Positions 9,359 through 18,664 of a stretch of 20,000 bases of DNA are shown piece by piece. The notes below the pieces were generated by a model. It made no database searches. It was not told the origin of the DNA and saw nothing but the letters and a program-made list of their open reading frames with translations. Each line of letters begins with the position of its first letter. The stretch's first letter is position 1. The position numbers and the translations under genes are program-made. The stretch lies in the IMG/VR virus record IMGVR_UViG_3300046536_000394; one strand, written 5' to 3'. This DNA comes from an uncultured virus (IMG/VR IMGVR_UViG_3300046536_000394). Lineage: Duplodnaviria; Heunggongvirae; Uroviricota; Caudoviricetes.

Positions 9359-9552
9359 CTCGACTTCCTCGTGAAGTGCATTCGATAGCAGCCCTTGGCA
9401 AATTTCGATGGCTCGAATGGCTCTCTCACCAATGATGTCCCGGTCCATTGCATTCCATTCTCTTTTGCGAGGGCCCTGGCCGCGTCGCGTTCTGCATTAG
9501 AAGCCACTACGACTTCAGCACGATCGTCGCTTATCCTGAGGCACAGCGTCAT
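9355..9552 (-). CDS. Hypothetical protein (MTLCLRISDD...)
   Basis: 65 aa, ATGA-coupled to both the ProQ-like and LuxR-type genes. Confidence 0.65.
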   Translation of the reverse strand: MTLCLRISDDRAEVVVASNAERDAARALAKENGMQWTGTSLVREPFEPSKFAKGCYRMHFTRKSR

Positions 9553-10229
9553 TTCGCATCGCGCTCGCGGATCCGGCGTTCGAAGTCGGCGATTCGTGCG
9601 TCGTCTTGCGCTTTGCGGCCGCTGGAATGATACCAGTTGTCGCTCATCGAAGCGGCGTATTGGTAGTATTTCAGGCGCTCCAGCTCTTCCTCGAGCGTCG
9701 GCATCGGGACGAAGTCGTCCGGGATCCCCATCTTCGCAGCGGGCACCCCCATGACATCGGCCATGTGCTTGCGGTTCATCTCCGCCCACTGCTCATAGGA
9801 AAGTACAAGTGGATCGGCAGTCGGAGCGCCAAACAATGCCTCGCCGACCTGGACCGGTCCCGCGGGGTCTCGCTTCGGATTAGGAATGCGTTTGCCGGCA
9901 TTGAGGAGCTCGATACACGCCTTGGCGTACTCTGCGGCGTCATCGTCCACGAAGCCGGAGAACATGCCTGCGAGCCCTACCCTGACGGCGCCCTTTCGGC
10001 ATGCCTGGAAATAATGGATGCCGGTGACGTAGTCGGTCATGAAGGCGGAGATGTGCCGATGCGACAGACCCGGGAATTTCTCGCGGGCATCCTTCAGCAG
10101 ATCTCTCTTGATACCAATTTTCAGGGGACGCTTTGCAAGCCCTGGGGCGACGAAGCAATTCGGATACTCGTGCACCATAGCGGTGCGGAGCTGGTTCATT
10201 TCCAGCTTAGAAACCCGTTTGCGGGACAT
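9549..10229 (-). CDS. ProQ/FinO-domain RNA chaperone with extra C-terminal region
   Basis: YPNCF...KRPLKIGIKRDL...MTDYV...YFQAC.KGAVRVGLAG...G.V matches the ProQ/FinO core; GGAG upstream of ATG 10229. Confidence 0.88.
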   Translation of the reverse strand: MSRKRVSKLEMNQLRTAMVHEYPNCFVAPGLAKRPLKIGIKRDLLKDAREKFPGLSHRHISAFMTDYVTGIHYFQACRKGAVRVGLAGMFSGFVDDDAAEYAKACIELLNAGKRIPNPKRDPAGPVQVGEALFGAPTADPLVLSYEQWAEMNRKHMADVMGVPAAKMGIPDDFVPMPTLEEELERLKYYQYAASMSDNWYHSSGRKAQDDARIADFERRIRERDAK

Positions 10230-10257
10230 TGATTCCATCTCCAAGGAACGATGGATT

Positions 10258-10309
10258 ATGTATACCTTTCTGATTAGAAAGCGCAATAGGTATACGAATA
10301 AAAATATAC
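10258..10309 (-). promoter_or_regulatory. Leftward promoter/operator (PL/OL-like)
   Basis: GTATAC at 10260 and 10290 plus ATATAC at 10304; on the minus strand TTGCGC-N16-TATACA; inverted repeat CTTTCT-N4-AGAAAG at 10266-10281; AT-rich. Confidence 0.6.
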
Positions 10310-10347
10310 AATTTTATCGACCTGGGATTAATCCCTATTGACGAGGG

Positions 10348-10917
10348 TGCGTCTAAGCCCGAAAAGAAAAAGCCCACGGAGGGAAAAGATCCGACCGTGG
10401 GCTCTGTGAGCAAAAACTGCCTGCCAAGACAATTGACGAGATTTATAAGGGAAAATCCCTGATCGTTCAATAGTGAAGCGGCTCACAGAGGCTTAAAAGC
10501 CCGGAAATGATGGGTCCGCTCGGTGGTTCCCGCCATTGTTTTGAAGCTTTGAGGCTTGAGTGACGCGGTTTCCAAGTGATTCGCCCGCGCTGCCGATCTT
10601 TTCCGGACCATGAATTGCTTTGCGGTGCTGATGCCTGGCTCATCAGACGGAATCGATCAGGCTTAGACCCCCTGCCGGGAACACCGCTTTTGCAAGGCGC
10701 CGGGAAACTCAACCAGATTATACCGAAGCCAAGACACGGCTTTCGCTCGTATTGCCCATAAATGATCGTGACGAGATCGATAAAAAGACTGGCAATGTTA
10801 GACGCAGTAGCGGCTGCGAAATCAAACCGAGGTTGAGATTAGGATGATTCCACGGATGCTTGGTGCTGAAGGGCTGCACCGGAATAGACCGCGTCTCGCT
10901 GTGTTAGAGACGGTCTA
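10348..10917 (-). ncRNA. Putative large structured non-coding RNA (ends and strand uncertain)
   Basis: No credible ORF; many perfect 6-10 bp stems, both local and nested long-range; ends in a minus-strand intrinsic terminator. Confidence 0.5.
10361..10403 (-). terminator. Rho-independent terminator of a minus-strand transcript
   Basis: Stem AGCCCACGG (10371-10379) / CCGTGGGCT (10395-10403), followed on the minus strand by TTTTCTTTTC. Confidence 0.8.
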
Positions 10918-10954
10918 AAATGATACCTGTACCCAATCGATAGAATAATCATAA

Positions 10955-11001
10955 AAAGGTATACATTCCGCTTGCACCACTAACCCGGAATACGTATACA
11001 T
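10955..11001 (+). promoter_or_regulatory. Rightward promoter/operator (PR/OR-like)
   Basis: CTTGCA-N17-GTATAC (10971-10999) resembles the rhizobial sigma70 consensus CTTGAC-N17-CTATAT; AAAGGTATACAT (10955-10966) is the exact reverse complement of 10258-10269. Confidence 0.65.
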
Positions 11002-11032
11002 TTATGTGACGGCTTAATCAGTGAGAGTTAGA

Positions 11033-11275
11033 ATGCGAATCAAACATACCGCTACAGACCTGGGAGATCGGACCGGTGTCGCCGCTTTGTCAGCGACGCT
11101 TTTCCTCAACGAAGTCGCGGAGAAATTGGGGCTTTCGCACATTGCTGTTCGCAAGTGGTCACGCATCCCCAATAAGCATCTCGATGCCGTACACGAGATG
11201 TCCGATATCCCGCTCCACATCCTCCGGCCTGATCGTTTCGACATCAACGGGCCAATCGAAAAAACCAAATCATAA
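11033..11275 (+). CDS. Cro/YdaS-like HTH regulator
   Basis: EVAEKLGLSHIAVRKW.RIP...VHEMSDIP.HILRPD.F pattern; first gene of the rightward operon. Confidence 0.85.
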   Translation: MRIKHTATDLGDRTGVAALSATLFLNEVAEKLGLSHIAVRKWSRIPNKHLDAVHEMSDIPLHILRPDRFDINGPIEKTKS

Positions 11276-18488: not shown

Positions 18489-18664
18489 TTCTCTATCGCG
18501 CGAGCCAAGGCGGGAACCTTGCTCGCGGTCCAGTCCAAGACCTCGAGGATGATAGCCTCGAGGACAGCCTCCGTGATGGCTTGACCCGCGAATTTCTCCA
18601 TCAGGTGTTTTGAGATATCGACATCGTCTCGAGCGACAAATTCGAATTCAGTCCGCGCTGTCAA
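18485..18664 (-). CDS. Hypothetical protein
   Basis: Likely TTG start overlapping the upstream TGA (TTGA), with GGGGGA upstream; alternative ATG at 18697. Confidence 0.55.
   Translation of the reverse strand: MTARTEFEFVARDDVDISKHLMEKFAGQAITEAVLEAIILEVLDWTASKVPALARAIEN

Follow-up and report, generated by a model that had tools for sequence, protein, structure and literature searches.

A large structured non-coding RNA with its own terminator beside the early-left operators of phages and prophages of Rhizobiaceae

Introduction

Large, intricately folded RNAs are rare in bacteria and phages, and most are without a known function. The described systems that appear nearest in kind to the element treated here are ROOL and GOLLD, non-coding RNAs of phages and prophages that are hundreds of nucleotides (nt) long and combine many helices with pseudoknot-like contacts and covarying kissing loops. 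In ROOL and GOLLD, contacts of this kind that had initially been taken for tertiary ones turned out to bridge separate molecules (PMC12286853). In this study, we describe an RNA of similar build, about 570 nt long, which lies at 10931 to 10362 on the minus strand of a 20,000-nt stretch of DNA from an uncultured virus (IMG/VR IMGVR_UViG_3300046536_000394; Duplodnaviria, Heunggongvirae, Uroviricota, Caudoviricetes). This whole stretch is called the window below, and coordinates refer to it unless another genome is named. Unlike ROOL and GOLLD, which occur near tRNA islands, the RNA sits in a genetic-switch region beside operators, its hosts being Rhizobiaceae in the broad sense, and it shows neither homology to them nor an Rfam match even at E up to 10. 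By analogy with ROOL and GOLLD, oligomerisation would be only a candidate property of this RNA.

The CI RNA of P4 and the c4 RNA of P1 and P7 are non-coding RNAs of phage immunity regions that are complementary to other sites on the same strand. They are about 70–80 nt long and act on defined sites in the operon under their control, whereas here both complementary sites lie inside the RNA. HK022 put RNA and lambda nut are structured RNAs beside an early promoter of a lambdoid-type switch; they lie downstream of PL or PR and inside the early transcript, whereas the present RNA lies upstream of the early-left promoter and carries its own terminator. In lambda, the order cI-rexAB-tIMM places a terminator just before OL/PL, and this slot, after repressor and cargo and before OL/PL, is the slot of the present RNA, although in lambda it holds protein genes and a plain terminator and no conserved 330–570 nt RNA fold. 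FinO-domain proteins, finally, bind terminator hairpins with U-tails. Like the RNAs of the FinP/FinO and RocR/RocC systems, the present RNA ends in such a hairpin, and in the window a FinO-domain gene adjoins it; FinP, in contrast, is a short antisense RNA, while nothing is encoded opposite this RNA.

Results

Extent, strand and non-coding character of the RNA

The RNA occupies an ORF-poor gap of about 800 bp (801 nt, 10233-11033; ORF, open reading frame), whose GC content is below that of the flanking genes and which separates two divergent gene blocks. We are highly confident that it is a discrete, heavily structured non-coding RNA with its own intrinsic terminator, belonging to an uncatalogued family, and we hold it to be just as nearly certain that the hosts of this family are phages and prophages of Rhizobiaceae in the broad sense.

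10362..10931, minus strand: whole non-coding RNA unit, about 570 nt; 5' end approximate, 3' end inside the U-tract

The ends follow from comparison between members. Homology to the relative L007 is confined to 10934 to 10359 (75% identity), a span that begins shortly ahead of the 5' hairpin and closes with the U-tract. In each of the aligned members (29 of 30 viral loci), nhmmer matches stop at the terminator, indicating a common 3' end. A U-tract follows the hairpin on the minus strand only. An earlier note on this DNA, made from the letters alone, had left the strand unnamed and proposed folding z-scores on both strands as a check; the value is moderate for the minus strand (-3.06) and unremarkable for the plus strand (-1.65). 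The minus strand is fixed as the RNA by G-U pairs in its sense, which would be A·C mismatches on the other strand: in the alignment A5, which comprises the 16 of 33 distinct sequences with an alignable 5' domain, columns 92:320 hold U-G in 15 sequences and columns 368:375 hold G-U in all 16.

The RNA is not protein-coding. An open sense frame crosses the core in only 1 of 32 sequences, 287 of 325 alignment gap runs are not divisible by three, no ORF in the RNA is conserved, and the minus-strand ORFs of 53 and 81 amino acids are without a Pfam or PHROG match; ARAGORN reported no tRNA or tmRNA within the RNA. The element thus combines what is generally expected of a structured non-coding RNA, namely compensatory substitutions, the lack of a conserved frame and defined ends.

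Members of the family

A BLAST search of the unit against genomes of the family around a Rhizobium host found it in 6 of the 400 that were scored (one further genome was not scored), and a profile search of the loci of these 6 stretched the matches to full length. An exact 25-nt signature, invariant in all copies and located at 10535-10511 within a long hairpin described below, retrieved 30 viral contigs and 22 metagenome stretches; 9 of the latter duplicate sequences already in the set. The alignments below draw on 33 distinct sequences. Among the viral loci, 29 align past the signature, 13 over nearly the whole length and the rest over the 3' domain only (270-420 nt). Allowing up to one mismatch, the signature was found in 0 of 401 genomes of an order-level sample, a count that does not imply absence from the order. 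The nearest complete relative, G001, is 66 kb long with direct terminal repeats, and its gap is 97% identical to that of the window.

Brucella phage BiPBO1 was the only match of the L041 copy, a prophage copy in a complete chromosome, in a blastn search against named phages, and the same copy found no match in the plasmid collection; the 801-nt gap of the window found none by blastn in either the phage or the plasmid collections. In BiPBO1 (L076 3978-4112) a hypothetical gene of 44 codons, gp62, is annotated over the invariant-loop hairpin and is probably not a real gene. Rfam 15 returned 0 matches over the whole window at the gathering threshold and no family at a relaxed E of up to 10, in line with the earlier note, which had recognised no known RNA family. 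Below threshold, the RNA scored highest with RT-2 (18.5 bits, threshold 40) and ar14 (16.9 bits, threshold 58.8), and the members L041, L044, L047 and L076 gave no Rfam match on the RNA. Full-text literature searches returned no report of an RNA at this switch position, nor do the searched passages of the BiPBO1 paper mention one. We regard the RNA as a new family within a known kind, the large ornate phage RNAs.

Fold and covariation

The fold consists of a 5' domain (P1–P5) and a more conserved 3' domain (P6–P10, with a long hairpin and a variable sub-domain), which are joined by the long-range helix P3. The elements are listed in 5' to 3' order; shares of paired cells and counts of compensatory pairs come from the member alignments.

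10885..10917, minus strand: P1, 5' bulged hairpin; G001 differs in bulge and loop only
10863..10879, minus strand: P2, hairpin GUGCAG/CAGCAC (A5 columns 62-67 with 75-80); double changes in 5 of 6 pairs, 79% of cells paired
10846..10853, minus strand: P3, 5' strand GUGGAAUC (A5 columns 91-98)
10803..10818, minus strand: P4, hairpin CGCAG/CUGCG; 97.5% of cells paired, compensatory changes in 3 of 5 pairs
10764..10778, minus strand: P5, hairpin; 96.9% of cells paired, compensatory changes in 3 of 4 pairs
10703-10675, minus strand: P6, hairpin; double changes in 8 of 8 pairs
10674-10658, minus strand: P7, hairpin; 98% of cells paired
10647..10654, minus strand: P3, 3' strand GAUUCCGU (A5 columns 314-321)
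10628..10646, minus strand: P8, hairpin CUGAUG/CAUCAG; 6 of 6 pairs formed in 16 of 16 sequences, compensatory changes in 5 of 6
10593..10606, minus strand: P9, hairpin CCGG...UCGG; third pair changed from G-C to U-A or A-U in 3 of 32 sequences
10565..10588, minus strand: P10, GCGG/CCGC around a small variable hairpin; 98% of cells paired
10501..10545, minus strand: long hairpin with an invariant 19-nt loop (10532-10514); compensatory changes in 6 of 10-11 stem pairs
10402..10490, minus strand: variable 3' sub-domain closed by CUCUGUGAGC (10490-10481) with GCUCACAGAG (10411-10402); compensatory G-C to A-U change in G001
10362..10402, minus strand: intrinsic terminator (hairpin 10402-10372) with stem GCCCACGG/CCGUGGGC, inner stem and loop AUCUUUUC (10390-10383)

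RNAalifold on A5 gave 70 pairs, 36 of them with compensatory changes. For counting we used a structure of 75 pairs, which combines the RNAalifold helices, less a single long-range stack that is invariant, with the stem pairs of the invariant-loop hairpin. In this structure 91.6% of cells are paired, against 79.2% in shuffled alignments, and 44 of the 75 pairs have changed on both sides, against 22.7 ± 2.4 after shuffling (0 of 500 shuffles reach the observed number) and 10-16 in slid controls. The alignment of the 3' domain, A4, holds 32 of the 33 sequences, L062 being left out since only its signature matched; over 34 pairs, 93.2% of cells are paired against 83.9% shuffled, and 22 pairs have changed on both sides against 9.5 ± 1.7 (again 0 of 500), with slid controls at 7-10. 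The slid controls and the counts per helix are the safer evidence compared with the shuffle figures.

The best-supported helices are P3, the CUGAUG/CAUCAG hairpin P8, the invariant-loop hairpin and the terminator. P3 (10853-10846 with 10654-10647) has 94.5% of its cells paired and compensatory changes in 6 of its 8 pairs. The 7-nt loop of P8 is conserved, reading AGCCUGG in most members and AGCCAGG in the window. Covariation in P10 is weak because the helix is almost invariant. For the terminator, 9 of 11 stem pairs show compensatory changes and 96% of cells are paired over the 32 sequences, with a C-G to U-A change in G001; its U-tract is UUUUUCUUUU (10371-10362), and the sequence thus presents both the GC-rich hairpin and the U-tract of an intrinsic terminator, which went undetected by a simple consensus scan. 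For the variable sub-domain the evidence comes from folds of single sequences: a closing helix of at least 4 bp is formed in 25 of 32, with helix sequences that differ wholly among members. For 12 of the 16 full-length members, the predicted fold of the P1 region is one hairpin with 7 bp or more. A boxA-like CUCUAACA in the P1 loop was considered and discarded, being absent from 7 of these 16.

The few differences between the window and G001 include matched changes in three pairings: GCCCACGG/CCGUGGGC becomes GCCCAUGG/CCAUGGGC, CUCUGUGAGC/GCUCACAGAG becomes CUCUGUGAAC/GUUCACAGAG and GGAAAAGAUC/GAUCUUUUCC becomes GGGAAAGAUC/GAUCUUUCCC.

The earlier note had proposed a multi-domain fold of about 570 nt with nested long-range pairings, and abundant compensatory substitutions in homologues bear this out at the level of the whole fold. 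A repeat search recovered the long complementary pairs that it had listed (10348-56/10798-806, 10351-62/10657-68, 10382-91/10595-604 and 10402-11/10481-90), and both the CTGATG/CATCAG and 10885-10917 hairpins, which recur in the predicted folds, and the two 9-nt direct repeats are present. Complementary 9-mer pairs in 10348-10917 number 7, against 0.72 ± 1.12 in 1000 dinucleotide shuffles (3 of 1000 reach 7), and complementary 10-mer pairs 2 against 0.15 (28 of 1000). Only half of its eight stems are conserved, however, namely the 5' hairpin, CUGAUG/CAUCAG, CUCUGUGAGC/GCUCACAGAG, whose compensatory change in G001 is accompanied by an equivalent closing helix in 25 of 32 members, and GGAAAAGAUC/GAUCUUUUCC. 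The outermost stems, which it took to define the fold (10348-56/10798-806 and 10351-59/10660-68), are not conserved: each has one arm beyond the U-tract and so partly outside the transcript, and neither is kept in L007. CCGGAAA (10501-07/10600-06) pairs at 7 of 7 positions only in the window and G001 and at 1-4 of 7 in the other 14 sequences, GCGGTG (10622-27/10682-87) pairs at 6 of 6 only in the window, and each direct repeat has lost one copy in G001, so that these two local stems and both repeats are lineage-specific or due to chance. The helices that organise the fold, that is, 10853-10846 with 10654-10647, the invariant-loop hairpin and the terminator, had gone unnoticed.

A loop-loop contact between P9 and the terminator

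The pairing of 10382-91 with 10595-604 (GGAAAAGAUC/GAUCUUUUCC) stands out as a covarying contact between two hairpin loops, in which GGAAAAGATC/GATCTTTTCC links the P9 loop to the loop of the terminator hairpin. One partner is the P9 loop GAAAAGAU (10603-10596) and the other the terminator loop AUCUUUUC. In 19 of 32 sequences the loops match each other perfectly over 6-8 nt, and 7 distinct cognate pairs of this length occur: the six-nucleotide pairs GAUGAU:AUCAUC, GGUGAU:AUCACC (the pair of BiPBO1) and CGUGAU:AUCACG, the seven-nucleotide pairs GAAUGAU:AUCAUUC and GGUUGAU:AUCAACC, and the remaining GAAAAGAU:AUCUUUUC and GGAAAGAU:AUCUUUCC. In the other 13 sequences a one-base bulge or mismatches occur between the loops, L007 having the poorest match, while in G001 a deletion in one of the loops is offset by a substitution in its partner, and the match is retained. 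The stems of P9 and of the terminator each covary in their own right, and the loops covary in both sequence and length.

We read the contact as a kissing interaction; it is the strongest single feature that the fold offers. The earlier note had taken mutually exclusive pairings as a sign of switching. Switching is possible, yet the overlapping pairings can be reconciled as two hairpins with kissing loops, and a true either-or switch is not required, because only the closing G·U of P9 must open for kissing. The sequence would be compatible with a contact within one molecule as well as with one between copies.

Position in the switch region

The immunity side ends with the RNA. A cI-type repressor and its cargo genes precede it, the left operators and the early-left promoter follow immediately, and the early-left transcript does not include it. 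In the window the surrounding elements are the following.

9549..10232, minus strand: ProQ/FinO-domain gene, first of the leftward early operon (Pfam PF04352, E 9.8e-17)
10258-69 and 10285-95: left operator-like GTATAC repeats, overlapping the putative leftward early promoter
10286-10281 (-35, TTGCGC) and 10264-10259 (-10, TATACA), minus strand: putative leftward early promoter, read by eye
10938..10965, minus strand: putative promoter of the RNA; -35 TGTATA at 10965-10960, 16-nt spacer, -10 CTATCG at 10943-10938
10954..11002: right operator-like repeats AAAAGGTATACATT (10954-67) and AATACGTATACATT (10989-11002), between the RNA and the cro-like gene
11034..11275, plus strand: cro-like ORF, 80 amino acids, no Pfam or PHROG match; named from its position and by-eye likeness to small divergent ORFs elsewhere

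The putative promoter of the RNA was read by eye, overlaps an operator-like GTATAC site and was not reported by a consensus scan. The leftward block continues from the ProQ/FinO-domain gene with sigma/LuxR-like, RecT-like and exonuclease VIII-like genes, and the rightward block runs from the small cro-like ORF to a methyltransferase, a RuvC-like resolvase and a DnaB-like helicase.

Across the family, a Peptidase_S24 gene (in 8 cases also with a helix-turn-helix match) lies upstream on the strand of the RNA in 10 loci, opposite a small cro-like gene, and BiPBO1 has the same layout with gp68 opposite gp69. Between cI and the RNA there is variable cargo: a lipoprotein-like ORF, an AAA ATPase, a WYL protein, an Arc-like protein and DUF6941. 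Such cargo was seen at L073 1391-2662, L067 3436-4443, L061 3427-4146 and L049 1400-1783 and includes an AAA ATPase (AAA_22/ATPase_2), WYL-domain and DUF6941 proteins, with an RNase H on the opposite strand; these genes might serve prophage defence or exclusion. The operator words of the cI-cro region recur from -14 to +70 nt of the 3' end of the RNA in 7 of 8 loci examined, and in 4 loci a few isolated matches were also seen on the upstream side of the RNA, at a distance of 39-150 nt. In at least 22 of 25 loci, inspection by eye showed a promoter-like pair (CTTGAC/TTGACA/CTTGCG, N16-18, TAnnnT) that points the same way as the RNA and follows its terminator at a distance of 55-95 nt. Both kinds of element, the operator words and the promoter-like pairs, thus come after the terminator of the RNA, an arrangement other than that of put and nut. 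No neighbouring gene is as conserved as the RNA, and the genes downstream show no relation from one locus to the next: a Pfam match exists for only 2 of 67, all-against-all blastp leaves 59 of 87 as singletons, and neither search yielded a conserved protein partner.

In the window, G001 and L007 no cI adjoins the RNA and no gene lies upstream on its strand, so that the RNA stands alone between two operator sets. Both G001, which is complete, and G005 lack a Peptidase_S24 match as well as a tyrosine-integrase match, and the RNA is therefore kept in phages that apparently lack a classical lysogeny module. Four GTATAC-palindrome operator-like sites flank the RNA in the window, while the related complete genome G001 is without a Peptidase_S24-type repressor.

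The ProQ/FinO gene lies downstream of the RNA only in the window, G001 and L007, the L007 protein being 52% identical to that of the window. As a candidate partner of the RNA the gene is suggestive, FinO domains being binders of U-tailed terminator hairpins, although the two adjoin in one clade only. Its product has few relatives (11 proteins at E ≤ 0.001), and a C-terminal tail (…YAASMSDNWY.SSGRK..DDA.I…) is conserved in 10 aligned sequences including that of the window. Between the window and G001 the gap (10233-11033) is 97% identical and the adjoining ProQ protein (9549-10232) only 84%; most of the divergence falls in the C-terminal half, pointing to a mosaic junction within the gene.

RNA-library contigs at a prophage copy

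For the prophage copy L041, four RNA-library runs of one study contain 85-92% of the sampled words. In each of the four, one contig spans the whole RNA (a near-identical L041 copy), the upstream ORF and 200-270 nt past the terminator, at a depth similar to that of the contig over cI. The stretch L041 5855-6200 has no contig cover and contigs of lower depth lie downstream; neither was used to infer transcription units or repression. These contigs offer weak support for expression of the RNA in uninduced cultures.

Other RNA-like elements

About 16 loci (L044, L046-L050, L052-L054, L056, L057, L059, L060, L064, L073, L074, L076) carry a conserved hairpin-like element, CACGAAGAAGC … GCCGATCTGG, in the early-left leader about 100-170 nt past the terminator of the RNA, and about 5 others carry a second leader type, CCGAATGA … GACGACGAAACGG. 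Both leader types are candidates for additional RNA elements of the switch. In prophages that encode a ProQ homologue, the slot upstream of OL/PL is filled by another non-coding stretch, distinct from the RNA and likewise ended by a terminator (L021 2500-3000, L022 2500-3000, L017 2050-2420). It shares the motif CCCGCGCCCGCAG…GGGATTTGCACC, with a C/U-rich hairpin in L021 and L022 and, in L017, a terminator that resembles that of the RNA family (nhmmer E 3e-5), and Rfam returned no match for this slot stretch in the three loci; if these stretches are unrelated to the RNA, the slot would serve phage RNAs more generally. At 18498-18590 on the minus strand of the window, ARAGORN reports a 93-nt tRNA-like gene (Asp, anticodon atc) of unusual length and anticodon. 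A further tRNA-like gene of 89-91 nt lies at L047 3700-3790 (plus strand), about 530 nt downstream of the RNA there; ARAGORN calls it Thr (ggt), and it has a weak Rfam match to tRNA-Sec (30 bits, threshold 47).

Discussion

We tentatively favour, at somewhat less than an even chance, a model in which the RNA is a stand-alone molecule that acts in trans or associates with itself and works through its invariant 19-nt loop. In this model the RNA would be made as a stable molecule of its own, in the window from the promoter beside the right operators, and the terminator would both end the RNA and shield the early-left promoter from read-through. The kissing contact would dock the 3' hairpin onto the body of the RNA or join copies to one another, and the invariant loop would be offered in trans to a conserved partner of host or phage.

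Several observations weigh against this model or against the RNA unit on which it builds. A conserved complement to the invariant loop, of at least 9 nt, was not found within ±3 kb, and in four host genomes such complements are no more frequent than those of controls. The 570-nt form is not universal, since roughly half of the members can be aligned over the 3' domain only; the 5' end of the RNA is approximate and its putative promoter was read by eye only. The structure was partly derived by RNAalifold on the same alignment that was then counted, which inflates the share of paired cells, and the member sequences are mutually related, which makes the shuffle controls overstate significance. 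The contigs over L041 stem from one study, are silent on strand, ends and level, and may include DNA carry-over; as they bridge the upstream ORF and pass the terminator, the RNA might belong to a longer transcript, or transcription might pass beyond its end.

The last of these points also belongs to the first alternative, a cis-acting switch or insulator, in which the RNA would be a sensor whose terminator sets read-through from the immunity side into the early-left operon and in which P9 and the loop-loop pairing would be alternative states. We consider this unlikely. In its favour, the RNA always lies directly upstream of the early-left operon in the same orientation, the conserved terminator loop takes part in covarying pairings that overlap P9, and in all four L041 runs the contigs extend 200-270 nt past the terminator. 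However, a separate operator-flanked promoter intervenes between the terminator and the first gene, which makes the operon independent of read-through. Furthermore, the loop-loop pairing spares the main terminator stem of 7-8 bp, the inner stem covaries as well and no classic antiterminator is present, while a length of 330-570 nt is far above the known size of attenuators.

Rather improbable, in our view, is that the RNA is the structured 3' end of an immunity-side transcript, which would stabilise the cI or cargo messages or be cut from them as a 3'-derived small RNA. The RNA does follow cI and cargo genes on the same strand, and one contig from the L041 RNA libraries bridges the upstream ORF and the RNA. 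Such a bridge does not demonstrate a single transcript, however, and the window, G001 and L007 keep the RNA without any upstream gene on that strand; the size of the RNA and its invariant loop also go well beyond the needs of a stabiliser.

We give a similarly small chance to a bolder form of the trans-acting model, in which the RNA would be a protein-free switch module, either as a homo-oligomer held by intermolecular P9-terminator contacts or as the immunity or exclusion determinant itself in phages without cI and integrase. In the latter form the ProQ/FinO protein of the phage might help the RNA.

Slightly less probable again is RNA immunity or antisense control in the manner of P4 CI or P1 c4, in which the RNA would pair with early transcripts of its own phage and replace the protein repressor in the clade without cI. 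In the clade of the window, the RNA does take the position of cI between the operator sets, and G001 and G005 lack the Peptidase_S24 repressor and the tyrosine integrase. By eye, GAUCGGC in the RNA is also complementary to GCCGAUC in the early-left leader element of about 16 loci. The window and about 10 other loci nevertheless lack this leader element, and changes of the RNA at GAUCGGC are compensated within P9 while the leader does not covary; being neither universal nor covarying, the pairing was rejected as a candidate interaction. The invariant loop has no conserved target, and a conserved external target like those of CI and c4 was found neither within ±3 kb nor in the leader, where the match is partial; the Rfam scans gave no C4 match, and the operators still imply a protein regulator.

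Finally, a purely DNA-level element, whose repeats would be protein sites such as origin iterons or extra operators and which would encode no functional RNA, is scarcely credible despite the low GC content and the operator-like repeats at its borders, as sites separated by 20 to 200 nt have stayed complementary through compensatory changes, only one strand tolerates G-U pairs, the terminator with its U-tract is conserved, and it is complementarity rather than the direct repeats (each with one copy lost in G001) that has been kept. The earlier note had named a lack of compensatory substitutions, or repeats that are iterons, as grounds for abandoning an RNA fold, and on both counts the evidence disfavours the DNA reading.

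Returning to the stand-alone RNA, its loop-loop contact, which covaries in sequence and in length, suits a mutate-and-rescue design, and the exact 25-nt signature provides an easy handle for finding more members. In temperate phages that infect rhizobia, agrobacteria and brucellae, the RNA holds a fixed place in the lysis-lysogeny switch, and it survives in relatives that have lost the repressor. It may therefore represent a part of the switch, or an interaction between prophage and host, that protein-centred annotation has overlooked.

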